Shown here: piece by piece, positions 1,082-21,452 of the stretch
How the letters are laid out: the number at the start of each line of letters is the position of its first letter
Numbering within the stretch: the stretch's first letter is position 1
DNA from: Peribacillus frigoritolerans
Lineage (GTDB): Bacteria; Bacillota; Bacilli; Bacillales; Bacillaceae
Reading direction: 5' to 3'
Length of the DNA stretch: 32,000 nt
Assembly: GCF_004358755.1 (NCBI RefSeq)
Contig: NZ_SMZY01000001.1
Coordinates: 1,206,796-1,238,795 of the forward strand
Program-made: the position numbers and the translations under genes
The notes under the pieces: generated by a model
Databases searched by the model: none
Seen by the model: only the letters and a program-made list of their open reading frames with translations
Told to the model about the DNA's origin: nothing

Positions 1082-1225
1082 ATGGAGCAAAAGCCATTGC
1101 ACTATGACGGGAGTGTTCAAGCAGAGGTTGATAATCAGCAGACATCATCTGAACCCTTGAAAATAACAGATGAAATGAGAAAAAATATAGGCAGCAATCC
1201 ATATTTTGTTGAAATAAATGAATAA
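1082..1225 (+). CDS. Small hypothetical protein (47 aa), absent from the supplied track
   Basis: MEQKPLHYDGSVQAEVDNQQTSSEPLKITDEMRKNIGSNPYFVEINE. GGGAGGTG lies 9 nt upstream, a promoter-like motif lies further upstream, and its own hairpin plus T-run lies downstream. No family recognised. Confidence 0.35.
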   Translation: MEQKPLHYDGSVQAEVDNQQTSSEPLKITDEMRKNIGSNPYFVEINE

Positions 1226-1275: not shown

Positions 1276-2073
1276 TTATCTCCTCCCTTTGGAACGAATA
1301 ACTATAAACGTTTCTTCATCCTCATCATCTTCATATTTATAGGAATCATGATATTTTGCTTTTTCAGGAACTTGTTCCTTTACCCTCTCTGGAGTGAGTC
1401 TTTTTTCCTTTTCTCCTATCACTGGTTTTTCCTGTTTTTCTTGTTTCTTTTCCTTTTTTTCTAATTCTTGTTTTTCCTTTTTATCTTCCTTTGTTGCTTT
1501 AGCAGGCTCTTTTTTGTCTTCTTTCAGTTCTTTAAGCGAATCTTTTATTTGTTTTTCCTCTTCCTTTAATTTTTTTTCTTTCTTGACTTCCTTAAGAGAT
1601 TCTTCCACAGACTTTACCGCTTCAACATTTTCTTCTTTTAAAACTTCATGCTCAATTTGTGTACACTCTTCATGTCTACTGGGTTCTTCATCAGAATAGA
1701 GACATTTCTCATCTTCATATTCATCTGTACAGTAATCTTGATGAGAATGAATTTGTTCATCGACACACTTGCATTCAGTATCAAAAAAAATGACTTCACA
1801 ATGTTCCTTGACTTCTTCTAGGAGCATTTCTACAAGAACCTCTTTATTCATAGCCAGTTTCAATGTATTGTTTAAATCCTTTTTTAAATGAATCAGAAAT
1901 TCAGATGAAACAGCATTTTTTATTTCTTTCATTGCAATGAGCTCTTCATAGATCGCTTCAGATAAAGCATGATTTAAAGTTAAAACCGATTCAAGGAACC
2001 TATTAATGTCCCGGCATTTACAGTTGTCACAGGCTCCCGTGCAGCATTCTTTTCCATTGTTATAAGAAGACAC
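1276..2073 (-). CDS. Bipartite low-complexity protein with a Cys-rich N-terminal half and a Glu/Lys-rich C-terminal half; candidate spore coat/exosporium protein
   Basis: GTG start with GGGGGA 5 nt upstream. N-terminus reads KECCTGACDNCKC, with further ECKC and C-containing acidic stretches. The C-terminal 120 aa or so are almost only K/E (KEVKKEKKLKEEEKQIKD...). Function is inferred from composition and neighbours only. Confidence 0.6.
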   Translation of the reverse strand: MSSYNNGKECCTGACDNCKCRDINRFLESVLTLNHALSEAIYEELIAMKEIKNAVSSEFLIHLKKDLNNTLKLAMNKEVLVEMLLEEVKEHCEVIFFDTECKCVDEQIHSHQDYCTDEYEDEKCLYSDEEPSRHEECTQIEHEVLKEENVEAVKSVEESLKEVKKEKKLKEEEKQIKDSLKELKEDKKEPAKATKEDKKEKQELEKKEKKQEKQEKPVIGEKEKRLTPERVKEQVPEKAKYHDSYKYEDDEDEETFIVIRSKGRR

Positions 2074-2389
2074 AATAATCCCCCTTCATATAAGTTTTTC
2101 TGAAAATAGACTATGCAATAAAAATCTGATTGGATTGGATAATTGGAATTTGATGATGAAAATAGGCACATTGCATATGCAGAGAGGAAAGTGTGAAGGT
2201 GTAATTAAAAAGGGCTTATTATTTTTGATATTTGTTTAAAAAAGGCGAATGCACTGAATAAAATGCCGTCTCAATGAGGTTCATATTTGCATTATCTATA
2301 CAAGGACGAAGATAAAGCGAACAATTATTGACAAAATCTATGCTTTACGCTTTTTCTTTGTCCAAAAAAATATTAGGAGGAATAAATAG

Positions 2390-3199
2390 ATGTCTGTAAA
2401 TCCGTTCAGAAGAACAACATCTACAAATCATTGTGACGCTACAAACGTCAGACCAAATCCAATTCCAGCATCGCCGGATCCAATTATTAAGGTTCCAGTG
2501 TTGCTGAATGAAGTATCTGTGCAAATTCCAATGCATGCAGAAATTGAATTTCCAGCAGGTGAACGCGTTTTAGAAATCAAAACAATCAAAAAACGCACGT
2601 ATGTAACACAATGCCGTCTTGTTAACCGTGCTCCTGCCCCTGGCGACACACTTGCTAATTACAGAGCAAAACTTTTCCTTAGCGGTTTTGTGCGCAAAAA
2701 CATTCAATACGCTTCAAATCCAGTTGCAGATGCTGCTGGTGAAATTTTATCAAGAATCAATTCATTAACTGTTGAAGTTCCATTCGACTGTGTAGCAGAA
2801 ATTACAAATTTCAGAAATTTCCCTGTTGGACCATTCACTGATTCTCGCGATGAATTTGGTTATTTAATCTCTCAGCAGCTTCCAAATGACAGAAGCTTTG
2901 CTGCAAAAGACCGTTTAGATGGTACAGATCTTTCTCAGTTCCATCAAATCAGTACAGAATTCTACAACGAATTGCCTTTCTGTGAACTGATCAGAGCTGA
3001 TATCATTGAATTCGATGAGTCTTTAGACCGAGTTCCATTCCCTGCAGCTGGTGGTACAGGAGAACAAGAAATCGTAGGCGAAGGTACATTCACACGCCTT
3101 TCTGAAAAAATGGTATTAGACTTAACACTAAAACTATTGCAAAAACAACAAGTCAGAGTTGATTCTTTAGGGCCAGCACCAGGTGGACTCGAAGGCTAA
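2390..3199 (+). CDS. Beta-rich protein, paralog A of a duplicated pair; possibly DUF3794/SPOCS-like, candidate spore coat protein
   Basis: AGGAGG lies 9 nt upstream of the ATG. Long blocks are shared with ORF 3411..4385 (VPVLLxEV, LEIKxIKKR, TQCRLxNR, LFLSGFVRKNIQYASNP, SLTVEVPFDCVAEI, SQFHQISTE, PFCELxxADIIEFDE, SEKMxLDxTLKLLQxQQ). The family name is from memory and is unverified. Confidence 0.75.
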   Translation: MSVNPFRRTTSTNHCDATNVRPNPIPASPDPIIKVPVLLNEVSVQIPMHAEIEFPAGERVLEIKTIKKRTYVTQCRLVNRAPAPGDTLANYRAKLFLSGFVRKNIQYASNPVADAAGEILSRINSLTVEVPFDCVAEITNFRNFPVGPFTDSRDEFGYLISQQLPNDRSFAAKDRLDGTDLSQFHQISTEFYNELPFCELIRADIIEFDESLDRVPFPAAGGTGEQEIVGEGTFTRLSEKMVLDLTLKLLQKQQVRVDSLGPAPGGLEG

Positions 3200-3228
3200 T
3201 CAGCAAACATCAGTAAATAATGGGTTTG

Positions 3229-3260
3229 GGCTGTCGGGTATTACCCGGCAGTCTTTTTTT
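3229..3260 (+). terminator. Rho-independent terminator after paralog A
   Basis: CTGTCGGG (3231-3238) pairs with CCCGGCAG (3244-3251) with one G.U pair, followed by a T-run. Confidence 0.7.
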
Positions 3261-3351
3261 GGTACATAAATTGTTACACATCATATTTTATTGTATTGAA
3301 ATTACTAAGTGTGCACCCAAAAATAGACTTGTATCTATTTTTCGAGTCCAA

Positions 3352-3378
3352 ACAGGCGAATGCCTTTTGCATATGATA
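3352..3378 (+). promoter_or_regulatory. SigK-type (late mother-cell) promoter candidate for paralog B
   Basis: AC (3352-3353), 16-nt spacer, CATATGATA (3370-3378). This fits the published AC-16/17-CATAnnnTA pattern and lies 33 nt before the ATG. It is a short motif, so a chance match is possible. Confidence 0.35.
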
Positions 3379-3410
3379 AATTGCACAAAAACTTAAGGAG
3401 GAATCACTAA

Positions 3411-4385
3411 ATGTCTGTTGAGCCATTTCCGAGAAGCACTTCCATGCAGCACTGTAAAGCAACGATCGTAGATCCATCAGCAACTCCCTCAACTGGTATC
3501 ATTATCAAAGTACCAGTCTTGCTGCAGGAAGTCCGAATAGAAATTCCAGTACATGCTAAAATCACTTTTCCTAAAGGAGAAAAAGTTCTTGAAATTAAAG
3601 AAATTAAAAAAAGGGTTTTCTTAACACAGTGCCGCCTTATTAACCGCGAGGGTGCAGCCTCAGGCCAGCTATTTTTGAGCGGGTTCGTTCGCAAGAATAT
3701 TCAATATGCCTCAAATCCAAAAGAGGAATGCAAAGGATCTGTTTTATCTTCTATTAAATCACTGACTGTTGAGGTGCCGTTTGATTGTGTTGCTGAAATT
3801 GAACGTTTTCTTACTCCTCCAGTAGGTCCTGTAAGTGATACGAAAGAAGAGTTCGGTTTTTTTATTGCACAACCGTTAGGAATTGGTTTTCCTGAAAAGG
3901 ATCAATTATTGTCGAATGACATTTCTCAATTCCATCAAATAAGCACGGAACATTTTAATGAAATGCCTTTTTGTGAACTCGTTAAGGCTGACATTATTGA
4001 ATTTGATGAAGCACTGAACCGCAGCATCAAGAAAGAAGAGTGCATGTGTATTGAAAGCTGTGAAGAAAAAGAGATCATTCTTGAAATTCCGCTTGAAGAC
4101 TACATGGAACTGTGCAGGGAAGAAGATGGATGTGAATGTGAAGAATGTAAAAAGGAGCATGAATTTAAGCATTCAAGCTCGTCTAAACGAAAATCGTTTA
4201 AAGAACTATCTGACAAACTCAGTATGGAAATCATGGCATATGAAGAAGATTTTGAAAAGAAAGATGTCAAAAAAGATCATCGAAAAAAAGACGCAAAGAT
4301 TGAAACCTTTACTGAATTATCAGAGAAAATGATCCTGGATATTACACTTAAGCTGCTTCAAAGGCAGCAAATACGCCTAGGGTGA
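3411..4385 (+). CDS. Beta-rich protein, paralog B, carrying a Cys/Glu/Lys-rich insertion of about 94 aa; candidate spore coat protein
   Basis: AAGGAGG lies 9 nt upstream. It is collinear with 2390..3199 except for residues 205-298 or so (nt 4023-4304): SIKKEECMCIESCEEKE...CREEDGCECEECKKEHEFKH...KKDVKKDHRKKDAKIE. Confidence 0.75.
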   Translation: MSVEPFPRSTSMQHCKATIVDPSATPSTGIIIKVPVLLQEVRIEIPVHAKITFPKGEKVLEIKEIKKRVFLTQCRLINREGAASGQLFLSGFVRKNIQYASNPKEECKGSVLSSIKSLTVEVPFDCVAEIERFLTPPVGPVSDTKEEFGFFIAQPLGIGFPEKDQLLSNDISQFHQISTEHFNEMPFCELVKADIIEFDEALNRSIKKEECMCIESCEEKEIILEIPLEDYMELCREEDGCECEECKKEHEFKHSSSSKRKSFKELSDKLSMEIMAYEEDFEKKDVKKDHRKKDAKIETFTELSEKMILDITLKLLQRQQIRLG

Positions 4386-4398
4386 ATTTCACACTACC

Positions 4399-4430
4399 AA
4401 AGCACCTATAACAGGGTGCTTTCATTTTTT
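4399..4430 (+). terminator. Rho-independent terminator after paralog B
   Basis: AAAGCACC pairs with GGTGCTTT, with a T6 run shortly after. Confidence 0.65.
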
Positions 4431-4710
4431 GCGTAAAAATTAGCTAATTACATAGGATTCTATGAAAATTGGATGAATGAATCACTTCATCTAACCATAC
4501 GAAAAAAATATTTCTTAATAAGATAGTATAAGGGATCAGTCACAGATTACATGATTCTTTCTTTGCAAGATTTGAATGAGATATCCGGCAGCTATGTGCA
4601 GCGATCGTGATACGTTTGTCTGATAGATCAAGACGTCTTCTTGCAGGGTTGGATTTATTATCTAATGATGACTGCACCTTTAGTATGGATTGATGAAAGA
4701 GGTGAAAAAT

Positions 4711-5253
4711 ATGTGCCAGAAACATGTTGAAGTTCGTTTAATCTGCAAGCGTGTTAAACATTCGGGCGAACACTGTCCATGTGACCATTGCAAAAAACAC
4801 GAAGAAAAATGGATCTGTAAATGCGTCAAAGTTTGTGATGAGTGGAAGAAAGAAGAAAAGCACCATTGCGGATGTGATCACTGGAAAAAAGAAGAAAAGC
4901 ACCATTGCGAGTGTGGTTGCTGGAAACAAGAAGAAAAGCATCATTGCAGGTGTGAGTACTGGAAAAAAGAAGAAAAGTACCATTGCGAGTGTGATCACTG
5001 TAAGAAAGAAGAAAAGAATCATTGCAGGTGTGACGATTGGAAAAAAGAAGAGAAGCACCATTGCGAGTGTGATCACTGTAAGAAAGAAGAAAAGCACCAT
5101 TGCATGTGTGATAAGTGCAAGAAAAAAGAGAAGCACCATTGTAAGTGTGATAAATGCAAGAAGAAAGAGAAACACCATTGTAAATGTGATAAATGCAAGA
5201 AAAAAGAGAAACATCACTGCAAATGTGACAAATGCAAAAAGAAGCATAACTAA
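4711..5253 (+). CDS. Cys/His/Lys/Glu tandem-repeat protein (about 180 aa; 13-aa HHCxCD-type repeats); candidate metal-binding or disulfide-crosslinked spore surface protein
   Basis: The track ORF starts at TTG 4690, but ATG 4711 has AAGAGGTG 6 nt upstream. The protein is essentially CDxW/CKKEEKHHCx repeated 10.7 times. No Ser or Thr occurs in the repeats. Confidence 0.7.
   Translation: MCQKHVEVRLICKRVKHSGEHCPCDHCKKHEEKWICKCVKVCDEWKKEEKHHCGCDHWKKEEKHHCECGCWKQEEKHHCRCEYWKKEEKYHCECDHCKKEEKNHCRCDDWKKEEKHHCECDHCKKEEKHHCMCDKCKKKEKHHCKCDKCKKKEKHHCKCDKCKKKEKHHCKCDKCKKKHN
4834..5253 (+). repeat. In-frame 39-nt tandem repeat, 10 full copies plus one truncated copy
   Basis: Units begin with TGTGA at 4834, 4873, 4912, 4951, 4990, 5029, 5068, 5107, 5146, 5185 and 5224, an exact 39-nt spacing read from the sequence. 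Confidence 0.95.
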
Positions 5254-5333: not shown

Positions 5334-5362
5334 AAGACTTGTGTAAAAGCAAGTCTTTTTAT
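5334..5362 (+). terminator. Rho-independent terminator after the repeat-protein gene
   Basis: AAGACTTG (5334-5341) pairs with CAAGTCTT (5350-5357), followed by a T-run. Confidence 0.7.
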
Positions 5363-5446: not shown

Positions 5447-7117
5447 ATGGAACAAAAAAGGCAATTTGATCACATTTTAATCTATTTATGTATACTGGCC
5501 ATCGCTTTATATGTAGCACCGCTTTTTATCCTTAATGAAAATGCGCACATCCGCGTTCATGATAATCTGGATTCTAATCTTGCCTGGTATAAAGTGCTGA
5601 CGGAAAATGGGTACCTTTTAAGCGGGCTGAATGAAACTTTGCCGCAAATTATAAACGGACTGCCCAGAAATGCTCTTGGTTCTGAATGGAATCTTCAAAT
5701 CTGGCTGTACAATTGGTTCCCGACAATGACAGCTTATGCATTCTCTCAATCAATCACAAGAATTTTTGCCTTTTTGGGCATGTATCTTCTCTTGAAGGAC
5801 CATTTCCTTAAAGAAAGACAATATTGGTTTATTACTGCAGGAACAGCCTTAACATTTGCCCTGACCCCTTTCTGGCCCCAGGGAATGCTCAGCACACTGG
5901 GAATGCCTCTTGCTTTATGGGCATTTTTAAATATCAGAAATGGAAATCGTTATTGGCTCAGTATGGCAGTCTTAACTTTGCTCCCTTTTTACTCAAGCTT
6001 TGTTTTAGGTTTTTTCTTTTTTTTAACTGCTATAGGCATGTTATGGATCATGGATGTGATGAAAAAAAAGAAGTGGAATCTGCCTTTTTTGATTTCCGTC
6101 GGATACATGATAGTTGTCTATTGTATAGTTGAATATCGGTTAATCTATTCCTTTTTATTCTCATCTGAACCAAATAGCCGTGATGAGTACTTTCATGCGA
6201 GGCTGCCATTATGGCGGGTCATAAGGCTTACATTTAAGAACTTTGTATTAGGACATACACATGTCATGACCGTTCATGGCTTGATTATCCTGCCTGTCAC
6301 TCTGTTTGCTCTATACATAATGATCCGAAAAGGAAGATGGAAAACAGAAAAACCGTTTGTTTTTTTATTCATTTTAAATTTTTGTTTATCAGCCTGGTAT
6401 GCTTTCTGGTTTTATAAGGGCTGGCTTCCTTTAACGGAACGTTTTCATTTCTTGGATACCTTTAACTTTGCAAGATTCCACTTCTTGCGGCCTATCATTA
6501 TTTATTTGGGTTTTGCTTTGGGGTTAAAGATTTTATACAGTGAATTCCCCAAAAAGGGGGTAATCTGGGCGTGTATTCTAGCTCAAGTAATAGTGCTCGG
6601 CCTCTTTAATGATGAAATTATCTATCAAAAGAAACCATCTGTAAAAGAGTTTTATGCAGAGGAACAGTTTGCAGAAATTAAAGATCATATCGGCAAGCCA
6701 GTTGAGGATTATAGGGTTGCAAGCCTCGGACTGCATCCTGCCATCGCTCAATATAATGGATTCTATACTCTCGATACGTATAACAACTTTTACCCGCTCT
6801 CGTATAAATACCAATTTCGGAAAATCATCGAAAAGGAACTCAGTAAAAATAAAAGACTGCGGATTTATTTTGATGAGTGGGGAGGAAGATGCTATCTCTT
6901 TAGCAGCGAGCTTGGGAAAAAGTATATGTTTCCTAAAGATTCAACTAATCGAATTATGGATTTTGATCTGAATACGATACCATTTAAAGAAATGGGCGGT
7001 GAGTATATTTTTTCAAGCTTGCCGATTGAACAGCCGGAAAAGAACCATTTATTCCTGGATAAAGTATTTCATTCCGAGGAATCGGCTTGGAAAATTTATC
7101 TCTATAAGGCCAAATAA
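5447..7117 (+). CDS. Polytopic membrane protein (556 aa); candidate GtrC/GT-C-type glycosyltransferase, resembling my memory of the DUF6044 family
   Basis: GAGGTG lies 5 nt upstream. It has many hydrophobic helices in the N-terminal 400 aa or so and a soluble C-terminal domain. It sits directly upstream of GT2 and GtrA genes. Function is inferred from topology and context. Confidence 0.6.
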   Translation: MEQKRQFDHILIYLCILAIALYVAPLFILNENAHIRVHDNLDSNLAWYKVLTENGYLLSGLNETLPQIINGLPRNALGSEWNLQIWLYNWFPTMTAYAFSQSITRIFAFLGMYLLLKDHFLKERQYWFITAGTALTFALTPFWPQGMLSTLGMPLALWAFLNIRNGNRYWLSMAVLTLLPFYSSFVLGFFFFLTAIGMLWIMDVMKKKKWNLPFLISVGYMIVVYCIVEYRLIYSFLFSSEPNSRDEYFHARLPLWRVIRLTFKNFVLGHTHVMTVHGLIILPVTLFALYIMIRKGRWKTEKPFVFLFILNFCLSAWYAFWFYKGWLPLTERFHFLDTFNFARFHFLRPIIIYLGFALGLKILYSEFPKKGVIWACILAQVIVLGLFNDEIIYQKKPSVKEFYAEEQFAEIKDHIGKPVEDYRVASLGLHPAIAQYNGFYTLDTYNNFYPLSYKYQFRKIIEKELSKNKRLRIYFDEWGGRCYLFSSELGKKYMFPKDSTNRIMDFDLNTIPFKEMGGEYIFSSLPIEQPEKNHLFLDKVFHSEESAWKIYLYKAK

Positions 7118-7139
7118 ACAGCACGGGAGACTCTACATT

Positions 7140-8147
7140 ATGAATGCACCTACTTTAACTATTGTAGTTCCATGTTATAACGAAGAAGAAATTCTTCCTC
7201 ATACGATTCATAATCTCAGTCAAGTTCTTGAAAATTTGGTAACAGAAAAGAAAGTATCATTAAAAAGCAGGGTCCTGTTCATTGATGACGGCAGCAAAGA
7301 CTCTACCTGGTCAATTATAAATAAAGCATGCCTGAATATGAAAAGAGTGGCAGGATTAAAATTATCAAGAAATGCAGGGCATCAAAATGCATTGCTTGCC
7401 GGGATGTTCACAGCCCAAGAAGGATCTGACTGTATGATCACGATTGATGCCGATCTGCAGGATGACGTCACAGTCATTCATGAGTTTATAGACACCTATC
7501 AAAAAGGATTTGAAATTGTTTACGGAGTCAGAAAGAAAAGAGGAACAGATACTCTTTTTAAACGCAAATCGGCGGAATGGTTTTATAAAATAATGAAAAA
7601 GCTTGGAGTCGAGCTTATCTACAATCATGCGGATTATCGGCTGATGAGCAAGCGGGCCGTACAAGAATTAAAAGGATTTGATGAGGCTAATTTGTTCCTA
7701 AGGGGCATTGTTCCGCTAATTGGATTTAAATCAGCCAAGGTCTATTATGACCGGAAAGAAAGGCTTGCAGGGCAAACCAAGTATCCACTAAGCAAAATGC
7801 TGTCATTTGCGTTTGATGGCATTACATCCTTTTCAGTAACACCAATTCGCTTTGTCTTATCAATGGGTTTGATTACTTTCCTTATCAGTCTTTTGTTCGG
7901 CATTTATTGCCTGACGATGAAATATCTCGGCCGGACACAAACAGGATGGACATCATTAATAGCCTCTATATGGTTAATAGGAGGACTGCAGATGATTGCC
8001 ACAGGATTAGTGGGGGAGTATATAGGTAAAGTATACAAAGAAACAAAAAGACGCCCTAAATATATTGTCGATATTGATTTATTCAATCTTCCGATTCTAA
8101 AAAACAATATTCAGGAAGAAGATTTTCGCTATGAGATCAGAAGGTAA
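7140..8147 (+). CDS. Family-2 glycosyltransferase, GtrB/CsbB-like polyprenol-phosphate sugar synthase
   Basis: MNAPTLTIVVPCYNEEE...FIDDGSKD...ITIDADLQD, with two C-terminal TM helices, which is typical GtrB/DPM1-like architecture. GGGAGA lies 9 nt before ATG 7140. The track's 6999 start would overlap the upstream gene by 119 nt and is unlikely. Confidence 0.85.
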   Translation: MNAPTLTIVVPCYNEEEILPHTIHNLSQVLENLVTEKKVSLKSRVLFIDDGSKDSTWSIINKACLNMKRVAGLKLSRNAGHQNALLAGMFTAQEGSDCMITIDADLQDDVTVIHEFIDTYQKGFEIVYGVRKKRGTDTLFKRKSAEWFYKIMKKLGVELIYNHADYRLMSKRAVQELKGFDEANLFLRGIVPLIGFKSAKVYYDRKERLAGQTKYPLSKMLSFAFDGITSFSVTPIRFVLSMGLITFLISLLFGIYCLTMKYLGRTQTGWTSLIASIWLIGGLQMIATGLVGEYIGKVYKETKRRPKYIVDIDLFNLPILKNNIQEEDFRYEIRR

Positions 8148-8565
8148 TTTAATTCGCATTGATCCGCTTTTTATTAGATTCATTCTCGTTGGAATCATGA
8201 ATACAGCTGCAGGATTATCAGCAATCTTCCTTTTACTGAATCTTTTTAACGCGGATTACTGGCTTTCAACTTTTTCGGGAAATATCATCGGGGCAGCTGT
8301 CAGCTATTATTTAAATCGTTCATTCACATTTTCAAATCAGACCAGCTTCAAAAAAAGTCTTCCGCGTTTTATAGTAGTAGTTATTGTGTGTTATGCTGCT
8401 GCATTTTCCTTTGGGAAAGCGGCAGCTGAATTCTTATATCTTTTATTACCACACTTTTTAATAATGACGGAAGATTTGCTTGCGGTCCTGCTTGGGACAG
8501 GTATATATACAATTTTAAATTTTTGGGGACAGAAATACTTTGTGTTCGGGATTAAACCTATTTAA
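8131..8565 (+). CDS. GtrA-family small membrane protein (putative flippase or accessory protein)
   Basis: 144 aa with four hydrophobic helices. It carries FIRFILVGIMNTAAGL and a terminal QKYFVF motif typical of GtrA-like proteins. It overlaps the GT2 stop by 17 nt, suggesting translational coupling. Confidence 0.8.
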   Translation: MRSEGNLIRIDPLFIRFILVGIMNTAAGLSAIFLLLNLFNADYWLSTFSGNIIGAAVSYYLNRSFTFSNQTSFKKSLPRFIVVVIVCYAAAFSFGKAAAEFLYLLLPHFLIMTEDLLAVLLGTGIYTILNFWGQKYFVFGIKPI

Positions 8566-10280: not shown

Positions 10281-10304
10281 GATTGAGGCGGGGTTGAAAG
10301 GGGG

Positions 10305-10790
10305 ACGAGGGTCTATGTTTCCTCTTTTTCCGGATTTGAACCGTATTGTGGAATCATACGGGGCCTATGTTTCCTCTTTTTCCAGATTTGAACCGTATTG
10401 TGGAATCATACGGGTCTATGTTTCCTCTTTTCCCGGATTTGAACTGTATTGTGGAATCATACGGGGTCTATGTTTCCTCTTTTTCCGGATTTGAATTGTA
10501 TTGTGGAATCATACGGGTCTATGTTTCCTCTTTTCCCGGATTTGAACCGTATTGTGGAATCATACGGGGCCTATGTTTCCTCTTTTTCCAGATTTGAACC
10601 GTATTGTGGAATCAAACAGGGTCTATGTTTCCTCTTTTTCCGGATTTGAATTGTATTGTGGAATCATACGGGTCTATGTTTCCTCTTTTTCCAGATTTGA
10701 ACTGTATTGTGGAATCAAACAGGGTCTATGTTTCTTCTTTTTCTGATTTTGCTCGATATTGTGGAATCATACAGCCCCTATGATTCCCAG
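10305..10790 (+). repeat. Spacer-less tandem array of a non-coding unit alternating 51 and 52 bp, nine full copies plus a degenerate tenth
   Basis: The anchor CTATG occurs at 10313, 10365, 10416, 10468, 10519, 10571, 10623, 10674, 10726 and 10778. Consensus unit: GGGTCTATGTTTCCTCTTTTTCCGGATTTGAACCGTATTGTGGAATCATAC(G). Each unit contains the inverted repeat CCGTAT-N9-ATACGG. Confidence 0.95.
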
Positions 10791-10869: not shown

Positions 10870-11937
10870 ATGAGCGGAAAAGCTCTTCATTATTTTGCCG
10901 GAGGGAATACGGCTAAAGGTTATTTCAGCCTGTATGATTCTGCATTTAAGAATTTATCACGTGTGTTCATGCTTAAGGGCGGGTCAAGAGCCTATAAATC
11001 AGAATACATGAAATTGATTAGTGAATCATTCCTTGCAGCCGGACATTCTATTGAGTATTTACACTGTCCATCTAACAATGAGTGGCTCGACGGGTTCATT
11101 ATTCCAAGTGCCGGAACAGGAATCATAGATGATGCTGTGCCGGATATTCGCAGCCACATCCCGATAGAAAACCTTGAAGTGATTGTCATGAATAATGACA
11201 TGAAGCATCAATCTGCATATCATGATGCAATCGGACAGCTCACAGCTGACATTTCTTTTAAATTTCAGCAGGCATACGAAACGTTCGCAGCTTCGCTGAA
11301 AGCACATGATGACATTGAAGATATATATATAGCAAATATGGATTTTACTAAAGCGAATCAGTTATCAGCTGATCTTATCGACCTTTTCTATGGAGAAGAG
11401 AAGGCCGGCAAACCTTCTGTTGTTAACCACCGCTTCCTGGGCGCAGCTACACCTGATGGAGCAGTAGACTTTATTCAAAACTTAACAGAAGATATCGAAA
11501 AGCGGTATTTTATTAAAGGGAGAGCTGGGTCAGGCAAGTCCACGATGCTGAAGAAAATTGCAGCCGCCGGTGAAGAAAGTGGATATGATGTGGAAGTCTA
11601 TCATTGCGGATTTGATCCAAACAGCCTCGACATGGTCATACTGCGGGAATTAGGCATTGCGATTTTTGACAGTACGGCACCACATGAATATGATCCCGAT
11701 CGTCCAACGGATGAAATAATCGATATGTACGAAAAATGCATAACGGCTGGAACAGATGAAAGATTCGAGCCTGAAATTCAGAGAACAACTGAAGCTTATA
11801 AAGATAAAATGAAAGAAGCTATTTCTTATTTGGCAGAAGCAAAAGGGATGATGGATCAGCTGGAGGAGTTGAAAGGCGAAATGCCATCTTCATATTCAGT
11901 TGATTTATACAAAATAATCACAGAAGAATTAAATTAG
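10870..11937 (+). CDS. P-loop NTPase, PRK06851-like family (uncharacterised)
   Basis: N-terminus HYFAGGNTAKGYFSLYDS and Walker A GRAGSGKST at about residue 218. It also carries FDSTAPHEYDP. The family name is from memory. GAGAGGA lies 7 nt upstream. Confidence 0.75.
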   Translation: MSGKALHYFAGGNTAKGYFSLYDSAFKNLSRVFMLKGGSRAYKSEYMKLISESFLAAGHSIEYLHCPSNNEWLDGFIIPSAGTGIIDDAVPDIRSHIPIENLEVIVMNNDMKHQSAYHDAIGQLTADISFKFQQAYETFAASLKAHDDIEDIYIANMDFTKANQLSADLIDLFYGEEKAGKPSVVNHRFLGAATPDGAVDFIQNLTEDIEKRYFIKGRAGSGKSTMLKKIAAAGEESGYDVEVYHCGFDPNSLDMVILRELGIAIFDSTAPHEYDPDRPTDEIIDMYEKCITAGTDERFEPEIQRTTEAYKDKMKEAISYLAEAKGMMDQLEELKGEMPSSYSVDLYKIITEELN

Positions 11938-12832: not shown

Positions 12833-12976
12833 CTAAATTTTCGTATTGGATTTTTTAGCTCTATTCTCAAGCTCGCTTTTAGGTTCAGATGAAAACTCAG
12901 TATCTTTACCATGGCCCTGAGGATTCACGCTGGGTGCTGCTTTACCGCGATTTGATCCTGTAAATTTGCTGCTCAT
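12833..12976 (-). CDS. Small acid-soluble spore protein, SspL-like (47 aa); absent from the supplied track
   Basis: MSSKFTGSNRGKAAPSVNPQGHGKDTEFSSEPKSELENRAKKSNTKI. GGAGGTG lies 6 nt upstream. The C-terminal ELExRAKKSNTK motif matches my recollection of the SspL family. A CATATTA -10-like element lies upstream. Confidence 0.55.
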   Translation of the reverse strand: MSSKFTGSNRGKAAPSVNPQGHGKDTEFSSEPKSELENRAKKSNTKI

Positions 12977-14825: not shown

Positions 14826-15158
14826 TTAATAATAGAACGGGTAAGGGATGAAGAATGGAAAGATAAACGCGTAATACGGAAAACGGCGTCTTCGGTAACG
14901 TCGGAATCTTCTTCTATATCCATATTGCCTGTTCGCATCCATTTCACTTTCTTCCACTTCTTCAGGAATCATCATTGTGACACCCTCATTATCCATATCC
15001 TCGATAATTCCTTCAACTTGAGATCCATCTGTCATTCGTGCAATAACATAAAAATTCATATGTCTTCTGCATGTGCTCATTGCATCTTCTCTAGTTTCAA
15101 AAGGTTCTTCTTGCGGCCAATTGGCAGGATAATACCCATATTGGTAATTGTTCATCAT
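14826..15158 (-). CDS. Tyr/Arg/aromatic-rich small protein (110 aa); possible spore coat component
   Basis: GAGGAGGG lies just upstream of ATGATG (15158/15155). The protein starts MMNNYQYGYYPANWPQ and ends YGYRRRFRRYRRRRFPYYAFIFPFFIPYPFYY. The track ORF extends to 15341 with no RBS. Confidence 0.55.
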   Translation of the reverse strand: MMNNYQYGYYPANWPQEEPFETREDAMSTCRRHMNFYVIARMTDGSQVEGIIEDMDNEGVTMMIPEEVEESEMDANRQYGYRRRFRRYRRRRFPYYAFIFPFFIPYPFYY

Positions 15159-15296
15159 AATCCCTCCTCTGCGGTTTAGGTTATTCACCCGCATCAAAAC
15201 ATGTAACAATGTAGTTAGAAGTATTTTTTTCATATGGATAAGATATTGAATCATATTGTTTAAAGTGATACCTGAACTTGAAAGGAGGTTCCTATT

Positions 15297-15860
15297 TTGA
15301 AGCTGATTGATAAAGTCCAGACCATTCTTGGAAGTGTTCAAACTGCGGCGAAAATGGATCTATTGGAAGCCTTAAAGAATTTGAATATACAGCTTGAAGA
15401 ATTAGAACCCTTTCTTAAAAACGAACAAAATAAACCATACTACCGAAAGCTGCTTTATAAAAATGAGTACCTTGAGCTTCTAGTGATGAACTGGTCTGAA
15501 CTGGAATGTGTGCCTCATGATCATGGGAGTTCGCATGGGTGGATTCAAGTCATAAACGGAGTTTCTGAAAATACTGTATATGAGGTCAAAGAGAATCAGC
15601 TGCCTTATGAAATTTTTACAGTAAAAAAAGAGAAAGGGAAGATCTTTTTTGCGCCAAAAGGAGGCGTGCATAAAATGAGGGAGGCTCAAGGCACAAACCT
15701 TGTAACTCTTCACCTTTATTCTCCGCCAATTACAGGAATGAAGGTGTATGATCTGGAAAAATGTGCAGCATGTGTGGTTTCTGATGATTGCGGTGCATGG
15801 TGGCCTGATGAAGAGTCTCAAATGGTGAAAGAAATAAAACTAAAAAAAGCTGCGGAATGA
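15297..15860 (+). CDS. Cysteine dioxygenase type I-like cupin
   Basis: ELLVMNWSELECVPHDHGSSHGW...GGVHKM...LHLYSPP matches the bacterial CdoA cupin His motifs. TTG start with AAAGGAGG 8 nt upstream. The C-terminal tail contains CAACVVSDDC. Confidence 0.7.
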   Translation: MKLIDKVQTILGSVQTAAKMDLLEALKNLNIQLEELEPFLKNEQNKPYYRKLLYKNEYLELLVMNWSELECVPHDHGSSHGWIQVINGVSENTVYEVKENQLPYEIFTVKKEKGKIFFAPKGGVHKMREAQGTNLVTLHLYSPPITGMKVYDLEKCAACVVSDDCGAWWPDEESQMVKEIKLKKAAE

Positions 15861-21287: not shown

Positions 21288-21452
21288 ATGAAAAAAGAAA
21301 AAGATGATTCGTTTTTGAAGCTGAAAGATAGACAAGCACATCCAAATTTCAAGGACATATCAGGAGACTCCGTAGATGAACTCAGAAATACAGAGTCTGC
21401 CAACATCATGTTAGGCGGAGATGAAATCAAGCAGCAAAATGAAAATCTATAA
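21288..21452 (+). CDS. Small hydrophilic protein (54 aa), absent from the supplied track; possibly spore-associated
   Basis: AAAAAGGAGG lies 7 nt upstream. Sequence: MKKEKDDSFLKLKDRQAHPNFKDISGDSVDELRNTESANIMLGGDEIKQQNENL. A strong bidirectional terminator follows. The overlapping minus-strand track ORF 21266..21556 has no RBS. Confidence 0.5.
   Translation: MKKEKDDSFLKLKDRQAHPNFKDISGDSVDELRNTESANIMLGGDEIKQQNENL

Follow-up and report, generated by a model that had tools for sequence, protein, structure and literature searches.

A CsxC-family gene block with an A-ENA-like hairpin gene, a probable spore-envelope cassette of Peribacillus frigoritolerans

In Clostridium sporogenes, deletion of csxC removes the crystalline parasporal layers of the spore interspace, and AlphaFold3 predicts that the CsxC protein forms a SPOCS tripod trimer with 14 cysteines per subunit (10.64898/2026.09.03.749163; CsxC was first identified in PMC4942563). 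Trigonal lattices with a spacing of about 6 nm are reported for this species. The preprint argues for convergence, Bacilli and Clostridia each having arrived at crystalline spore layers by way of different folds; in its Discussion, its supporting legends and seven of seven passages that speak of a 'homolog', CsxC homologues are named only in Clostridia, and the C. sporogenes layers were named after structures of the Bacillus cereus group. A second relevant system is the A-ENA sporesilk of Bacillus thuringiensis israelensis (PDB 9ihh; PF26595), for which Table 1 of PMC13111695 gives the residue numbering of the isopeptide triads IPB1-5. Here we describe a window of 32,000 nucleotides from Peribacillus frigoritolerans (assembly GCF_004358755.1, contig NZ_SMZY01000001.1, positions 1,206,796 to 1,238,795), the whole stretch of DNA that was analysed, in which four adjacent genes, A to D, lie between positions 1276 and 5253. 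An earlier note on this DNA had proposed that they form a lineage-specific outer spore-envelope module. CsxC-family membership of two of the genes, an A-ENA-like domain in a third, conserved SigK-like promoter boxes and conserved synteny together make a role in the spore envelope highly probable, and this part of the proposal stands; the particular layer is a matter of analogy, our best guess being a crystalline layer outside the coat.

Each of the four open reading frames (ORFs) is preceded by a Shine-Dalgarno-like sequence, as the earlier note had described: gene A (1276..2073, minus strand, 265 residues), gene B (2390..3199, plus, 269 residues), gene C (3411..4385, plus, 324 residues) and gene D (4711..5253, plus, 180 residues). 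Most of the genes had also been credited with terminators of their own, and a terminator-like hairpin with a T-run does follow B (3228..3254), C (4399..4422) and D (5334..5357), all on the plus strand; the sole hairpin on the 3' side of A is a shared one at 1235-1255, with its T-run on the plus strand. Sigma-70 promoter and terminator counts are at chance level (17 versus 15.0 and 5 versus 3.0, respectively). Because A points away from B, and because a separate terminator-like hairpin follows each of B, C and D, the block probably comprises four transcription units and not one operon. The ratio of nonsynonymous to synonymous substitution rates (dN/dS), measured against two orthologues, is 0.31-0.37 for A, 0.13-0.15 for B, 0.09-0.10 for C and 0.08-0.10 for D; all four genes are real and under purifying selection, and the block is conserved. 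Its nearest named relatives are found in strains of Metabacillus idriensis, where B is 96% and 84% identical. Ranked by cysteine fraction among 3321 called ORFs, a set that includes spurious calls, D stands highest, A and C fall within the top 2-3%, and B, in the top 16%, is unremarkable.

The core of the block is the pair B and C. Both pass the NCBI family model for CsxC, NF045794, with 238 and 226.2 bits against a curated cutoff of 135, and are on this ground classed as CsxC-family paralogs, the assignment resting on that model and not on an alignment to C. sporogenes CsxC itself. The model search proposed in the earlier note thus gave a name to two of the four proteins that it had regarded as uncharacterised and unlike any nameable coat protein; A and D have no family match. 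B and C also match the BC_2427 model, below its cutoff, and B matches DUF7852 in Pfam. Coat or exosporium proteins cited for B. cereus ATCC 14579 include BC_2426 and BC_2427 (10.1101/2022.06.22.497182). BC2426 shows an 8-fold decrease in a spoVT mutant (PMC5061766); as a possible CsxC-family gene, it is not counted as support here.

B and C are 61% identical over 214 residues. B has only four cysteines (1.5%), at positions 15, 75, 134 and 198; these form the family core, being kept in a 99-member alignment and 83-96% conserved over 72 rows. The AlphaFold2 (AF2) model of B is all-beta (predicted local distance difference test score, pLDDT, 78.6). Contrary to the claim that all four genes carry CxC or CC clusters in Glu/Lys-rich sequence, B has no CxC, CC or CxxC motif and only 10.8% Glu plus Lys, and B and C alike consist mostly of globular beta structure and are not of low complexity. 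Gene C encodes 12 cysteines. A charged insertion of about 90 residues (approximately residues 205-297; 4023..4301, plus strand), which appears as a gap in the B/C alignment before the last beta-strands, carries seven extra cysteines, including the previously quoted motifs CMCIESC and GCECEEC, and has a dN/dS of 0.14-0.15. Among 175 homologues the median is eight cysteines per protein. Fold searches with the B model matched no solved structure (Foldseek, none at E<=0.001; VIA, best Z 4.9). Eleven homologues from the clostridial class are 31.6-43.4% identical to B or C, and in their alignment all four core cysteines are present in seven of them and missing from four. A quick tree separates the B-type from the C-type proteins as two clades (support 95 and 97), so that the B/C duplication appears older than the genera that carry them; the pair of the window is also a clade apart from the proteins of the common Bacillales CsxC cassette described below.

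It might be argued that B and C are morphogenetic organisers which, like CotE or SipL, recruit coat proteins, instead of being bulk subunits of a lattice. B has four cysteines, compared with 14 in C. sporogenes CsxC, which tells against a lattice role and fits the cysteine-poor SPOCS proteins that the preprint places in an 'organiser' class (10.64898/2026.09.03.749163), and 52 of the 99 aligned homologues match the SipL/SPOCS model PF12673 at E<=0.01, a result that counts for the lattice model as well. Yet CotE is already present in this genome, B and C score as full members of the CsxC family, and C combines its 12 cysteines with a SigK-type, i.e. late, promoter box. On balance we regard the organiser role as unlikely.

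Gene A departs from any family in the collections searched, with no match in NCBIfam or in a Pfam set that did not include PF26595, and only six matches at E<=0.001 among 1.84 billion representatives. Its product begins with a cysteine cluster (C10, C11, C15, C18 and C20), followed by a helical hairpin, an acidic cysteine-bearing linker and a long Glu/Lys-rich tail; the motifs ECCTGACDNCKC and ECKC, quoted in the earlier note, are present. The hairpin (approximately residues 21-92; 1798..2013, minus strand) is modelled by AF2 as two helices, 15-51 and 57-88 (pLDDT 82.6). An atlas search with residues 1-110 of A returned A-ENA clusters at 0.81, a lead-level score. A nine-sequence profile of the N-terminal domain of A matched 9 of 401 genomes, including three distant proteins (E 1.4e-7 to 1.1e-5), one of which matches PDB 9ihh at E 3.4e-5; one weak match of this profile (E 0.003) was dropped as unrelated. 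The enlarged profile A3 places 9ihh first (E 5.1e-5) and recovers canonical A-ENAs, with matches in 37 of 401 genomes (one was checked and gives E 8e-22 to 9ihh). Of ten candidate bridging proteins, six reach E<0.01 with a profile built from 21 canonical A-ENAs, and a profile of these six homologs ranks A first among 29,844 ORFs of the genome (E 2.6e-9; next 0.33).

As the bridging homologs pass the canonical profile and their own profile finds A, homology between the hairpin of A and A-ENA is, from the sequence comparisons, very likely. Several results tell against it: the bridging set was itself collected with an A-based profile, and the canonical profile gives A only 10.6 bits, a score reached by 3 of 1995 shuffled sequences; the hhalign probability and the Foldseek E-value given below are weak too. 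With that profile A is not among the genome matches at E<=10; the best genome match, C19:53312-53509, was rejected as an off-frame ORF inside a helicase gene. In profile-to-profile comparison (hhalign), A and canonical A-ENA align with a probability of 21%, the best of 60 shuffles reaching 4.5%; both helices are gap-free and have a common LKxxxxKE motif. Foldseek with the A model ranks 9ihh second at E 0.31, first among natural proteins; profiles A1 and A2 found no A-ENA match among PDB sequences, and A2 no short homologues among 374 candidates.

The likeness does not extend to the cross-linking chemistry. None of the five donor/acceptor/catalyst triads is intact in A, which differs from A-ENA at the isopeptide positions E28>L, E29>N, E41>I, K42>A, Q44>K, N64>K, K76>N and K84>L, while E39, K77, E78 and E86 and the acceptor-type E82 are retained. 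E28 and K84, invariant in the 21 canonical rows, are absent from every one of the 12 rows that make up the A family and the bridging set. The N-terminal lock of A-ENA (Pro/hydrophobic, residues 2-14) is also lacking, a cysteine cluster standing in its place; the hairpin of A is flanked by cysteine clusters. Since no triad is intact and the lock is replaced, A is best described from its sequence as A-ENA-like and not as an A-ENA member in the functional sense.

Alternatively, A could have a coiled-coil hairpin of a generic kind that resembles A-ENA by convergence, or one that is truly related but no longer polymerises. This reading can appeal to the weak direct tests (0.81 in the atlas, nothing from A1 and A2, 21% in hhalign, E 0.31 in Foldseek), to the loss of all five triads and to the missing lock. 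It has to contend with the gap-free alignment of both helices around a common motif, with the six bridging proteins that connect A to the canonical profile at E<0.01 and E 2.6e-9, and with 9ihh as top natural protein by Foldseek; it seems to us distinctly unlikely. These arguments speak for homology and not for fibre formation, and the prediction that A forms fibres is a tentative one that we consider somewhat doubtful.

Several of the bridging proteins bear Cys/His-rich extensions. In one (L113), an A-like hairpin is joined to a His/Cys repeat that recalls the array of D, and another (L112) adjoins a gene that by eye resembles CotZ-family genes. Clusters of short or passenger-fused A-ENA-like hairpins were also seen (L111:1-1746, L123, L124, L125 and L132); some are only 54-74 residues long, some have several hairpin repeats, and at least some lack equivalents of E28 and K84.

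Evidence on the timing of expression comes from promoter-like sequences, which were scanned for with consensus patterns. SigK-like boxes are conserved before three of the four genes, A and C showing the -35/-10 pattern (3-mer-N16-CATAnnnTA) and D a candidate variant of it. Before A the putative promoter reads CCA-N15-CATAGTCTA (2107..2133, minus strand), about 41-42 nt upstream; CATAnnnTA recurs at -40 to -42 in six of six orthologous upstream regions, five of them with the -35 pattern as well. The SigK-like motif that had been noticed before C is confirmed as ACA-N15-CATATGATA, i.e. AAC-N16, at 3352..3378 (plus), and a CATAnnnT box with a -35 match precedes C in all ten orthologous regions, at -41 to -46 in eight and at -64 in two. 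For D, a candidate variant promoter, ACG-N15-AATAAGATA, lies about 190 nt upstream (4499..4525, plus), and by eye ACN-N15-AATAnnnTA is found at about this distance in six of six aligned upstream regions. The -10 element of SigE is similar to that of SigK. The boxes of the block match mapped SigK promoters such as CAC-N16-CATATGTTA (PMC4750369). Two further elements are possible regulator sites: a conserved imperfect inverted repeat just upstream of the candidate D promoter (4466-4500), near-perfect in Jeotgalibacillus, and repeated TTGGAT words at the -35 region of A (2125-2148).

Gene D is, by its sequence, an orphan His/Cys/Lys repeat protein, with 35 cysteines, 27 histidines and 50 lysines among 180 residues. 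An N-terminal segment, VEVRLICK...WICKC, is followed by a tandem array of 10.6 copies of a 39-nt (13-residue) unit, KKEEKHHCxCDxW/C (4834..5244, plus strand). HHCxC had been said to occur eleven times; there are eight exact matches, eleven being the count for xHCxC, of which ten lie inside the 13-residue-period array and one outside. Orthologues are 167-192 residues long, the repeat number differing between strains, and the first 45 residues are conserved as far as Jeotgalibacillus. D has no Pfam or NCBIfam match, and the atlas search yielded unnamed clusters only, at 0.79-0.80, below lead level. A relationship with CotG/ExsB was considered and ruled out, as D has only three serines, threonines and tyrosines in total and the genome has no CotH match. 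RNA contigs from a relative about 90-95% alike cover the orthologues of A, C and D, most deeply over D, with strand, level and timing unreadable, and three RNA runs shared small word fractions with the block; neither result is used as support.

The CsxC family is common in Bacillales. The NF045794 cutoff is exceeded in 11 of 41 related genomes and 13 of 401 genomes of the phylum, so that the label 'lineage-specific' does not suit the CsxC core; a narrow range is seen only for the accessory genes A and D. The complete block occurs in two of eight congeners. Among 75 loci surrounding relatives of B, drawn from the best 80 of 196 matches, the order A-B-C-D is kept in five, two from Metabacillus and three from Jeotgalibacillus, and the block is thus syntenic across two families. 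In all five of these A loci, a D-type gene that shares the N-terminal motif lies downstream of C. The B or B/C subtype also occurs in Fictibacillus, Guptibacillus and one Rossellomorea, accompanied there by different His/Cys-rich small genes; in Fictibacillus, genes for cysteine-rich proteins of 83-87 residues follow csxC2 (L032:8203-8856, L033:8164-8415), and the one tested had no Pfam or NCBIfam match.

Such a distribution bears on the possibility that the four are independent late-sporulation genes, neighbours by chance, with A and D not working with the CsxC pair and D perhaps a metallothionein-like binder of zinc or copper. Separate promoters and terminators and the divergent orientation of A are in keeping with it, as are the presence of A in only 5 of the 75 CsxC loci and the HHCxC/CxxC composition of D, which is typical of metal ligands. 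It is hard to reconcile, however, with a gene order kept across two families, with the presence of His/Cys-rich small genes beside the same CsxC subtype in Fictibacillus, Guptibacillus and Rossellomorea, with the fusion of an A-like hairpin and a His/Cys repeat in L113, or with the close matches of A among the 401 genomes, all five of which adjoin csxC. We therefore think chance neighbourhood quite improbable.

Most of the other loci hold a different cassette: of the 75 loci, 50 have an actin-like gene and 39 a CotY/Z-family gene. The actin-like gene (PF17989 ALP_N, about 396 residues; e.g. L050:3878-5442) lies divergently beside the csxC pair, as does a small gene of about 124 residues in 47 loci, and a CotY/Z-family gene often follows (both in 35 loci). 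The fixing of a ParM/Alp-type pair within a spore-envelope cassette is unexplained, and a literature search combining actin-like genes with the spore coat found no paper. The genome of the window has a distant actin-like gene (C12:762253-764073, minus strand), 25-30% identical to the cassette-linked ones and followed by a 192-residue ORF, the two lying far from the CsxC block. In Rossellomorea aquimaris (L039:4202-9792), a stand-alone csxC precedes three tandem genes for proteins of 579-595 residues, each of which joins a CsxC domain to a repeat-rich region at the N-terminus that looks by eye like a beta-propeller; a further fusion (P0052) combines the domain with DUF4183 and an Ig-like domain. 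These architectures suggest that the CsxC domain may be used as a display anchor.

CotY/Z (PF10612), CotX and CotH were not found in the window's genome (completeness 100, 21 contigs), in which CotE and CotO are present; CotY/Z was likewise not found in any of the eight congeners, whereas each of 16 other genomes from the same family proved to have it. The idea that the cassette is a replacement for CotY/Z was weakened by the six of eight congeners that lack both CsxC and CotY/Z, and the cassette is therefore optional and not an obligatory substitute for a crust. That finding is one of several which, together with the cysteine poverty of B discussed above, weigh against the layer-building model set out below. 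No sporulation-sigma box is conserved in the orthologous regions upstream of B, and B itself has no PF12673 match in the Pfam search. The full SigK-like pattern precedes 24 of 3321 ORFs, A and C among them, which counts in favour of the model, but the promoter window for this count was fixed after these promoters had been viewed. Finally, A is absent from the cassette versions of Fictibacillus, Guptibacillus and Rossellomorea.

With these points weighed, we consider it reasonably likely that the block is a late mother-cell cassette which builds a disulfide-locked CsxC layer with two accessory proteins; location, lattice, fibre formation, timing of expression and interactions are drawn here from sequence, models and analogy. 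The separately transcribed genes would be driven by SigK in the mother cell late in sporulation, and their products would self-assemble, as part of the outer spore envelope, into a layer locked by disulfides. If they behave like C. sporogenes CsxC, B and C would form strand-swapped tripod trimers that pack as a crystalline lattice, either on the coat or beyond it, with B as the cysteine-poor core subunit and C as a co-subunit whose inserted cysteine-rich charged loop adds cross-linking sites. More weakly, D, basic and with many cysteines, may act as a cross-linker or filler between the acidic cysteine-bearing segments of C and A, with cross-linking timed to the oxidation of the envelope at mother-cell lysis. 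Gene A's product may form cross-alpha oligomers by stacking of its hairpin, kept together by flanking disulfides and hydrophobic packing in place of isopeptides, and may display its charged tail.

A bolder version would have a Bacillales lineage without CotY/Z/ExsY build a Clostridium-type crystalline layer from a heteromeric B/C lattice, bound or decorated by a sporesilk-derived cross-alpha fibre in which disulfides have replaced isopeptides. Taken as a whole this is unlikely. If it were true, A would belong to an undescribed, Cys/His-flanked and isopeptide-less A-ENA branch, and CsxC crystals would be a scaffold common to Bacilli and Clostridia and not a case of convergence. CsxC-type scaffolds are in any event placed by these data in Bacilli, the very group for which the preprint argues convergence through different folds, and as the family is common in Bacillales, its genes are obvious candidates for the parasporal layers of the B. 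cereus group. A and its bridging relatives, as a sporesilk branch without the self-cross-linking residues, offer a natural test of cross-alpha stacking without isopeptides, and such a branch is of interest for protein nanomaterials. A literature search, mainly at listing level and with the subscription literature outside its reach, found no paper on CsxC genes of Bacillales or on an isopeptide-less A-ENA branch. Within the literature searched, then, the core is a known family, and what is new is the combination of genes, the isopeptide-less A-ENA branch and the spread of CsxC scaffolds across Bacillales.

Elsewhere in the window, the region directly after D (5447-8565, plus strand) holds a surface glycosylation-type triplet, namely a DUF6044 membrane protein, a GT2 glycosyltransferase and a GtrA-family gene; it also adjoins the block in congener G008 and, with GtrA not shown, in G007, and not in Jeotgalibacillus. 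A gene for the replication terminator protein Rtp (PF02334; 9111-9515, plus) places the block near the chromosome terminus, and GC skew is mostly positive across the window. A PRK06851-like P-loop ATPase gene (10870-11937, plus) has a SigK-like box upstream, and an unassigned 47-residue ORF at 1082-1225 (plus) is conserved in both block-bearing congeners. The SspL gene that had been recognised earlier is borne out at 12833-12976 (minus; TIGR03093, 64.9 bits, cutoff 51.85), while two further ORFs (21288-21452, plus; 14826-15341, minus) have the look of small spore proteins by eye and no family match. Short ORFs with repeated MFPLFPDL-type units (about 10300-10750), also present in G008, suggest an intergenic DNA repeat.

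Compared with the systems described so far, the block is closest to C. sporogenes CsxC, with which B and C are placed in the same curated family; B (269 residues) is almost the length of CsxC (273), its model is all-beta, and the core cysteines are common to B, C and most of the clostridial homologues tested. The differences are the Bacillales host, the tandem paralog pair, the four cysteines of B as against 14, the insertion of about 90 residues and seven cysteines in C, and a lattice, trimer and location that for B and C are predictions. The common Bacillales CsxC cassette, made up of a csxC pair with a BC_2427-type gene, an inverted csxC, an actin-like gene and often a CotY/Z-family gene, likewise has tandem paralogs with a Cys/His-rich neighbour, whereas the block has no actin-like, BC_2427-type or CotY/Z gene and contains A and D instead. 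With the A-ENA sporesilk, A has in common a homologous hairpin, the K77-E78 pair, glutamates equivalent to E39 and E86, a SigK-type box upstream and a C-terminal passenger region; it differs in having no complete isopeptide triad, in the cysteine cluster in place of the N-terminal lock, in its location within a CsxC cassette and in its charged tail of 170 residues, a kind of passenger that the main text of PMC13111695 does not name. CotG/ExsB (PMC7821199) resemble D in being basic, repetitive and of low complexity, a comparison of how such proteins might work; with three Ser, Thr and Tyr residues and no cotH found in the genome, D is not a CotH-phosphorylated SKR protein. To CotY/CotZ/ExsY there is no sequence relationship, PF10612 being unmatched by all four proteins, and the resemblance lies in the proposed role as cysteine-rich components of an outer spore layer.

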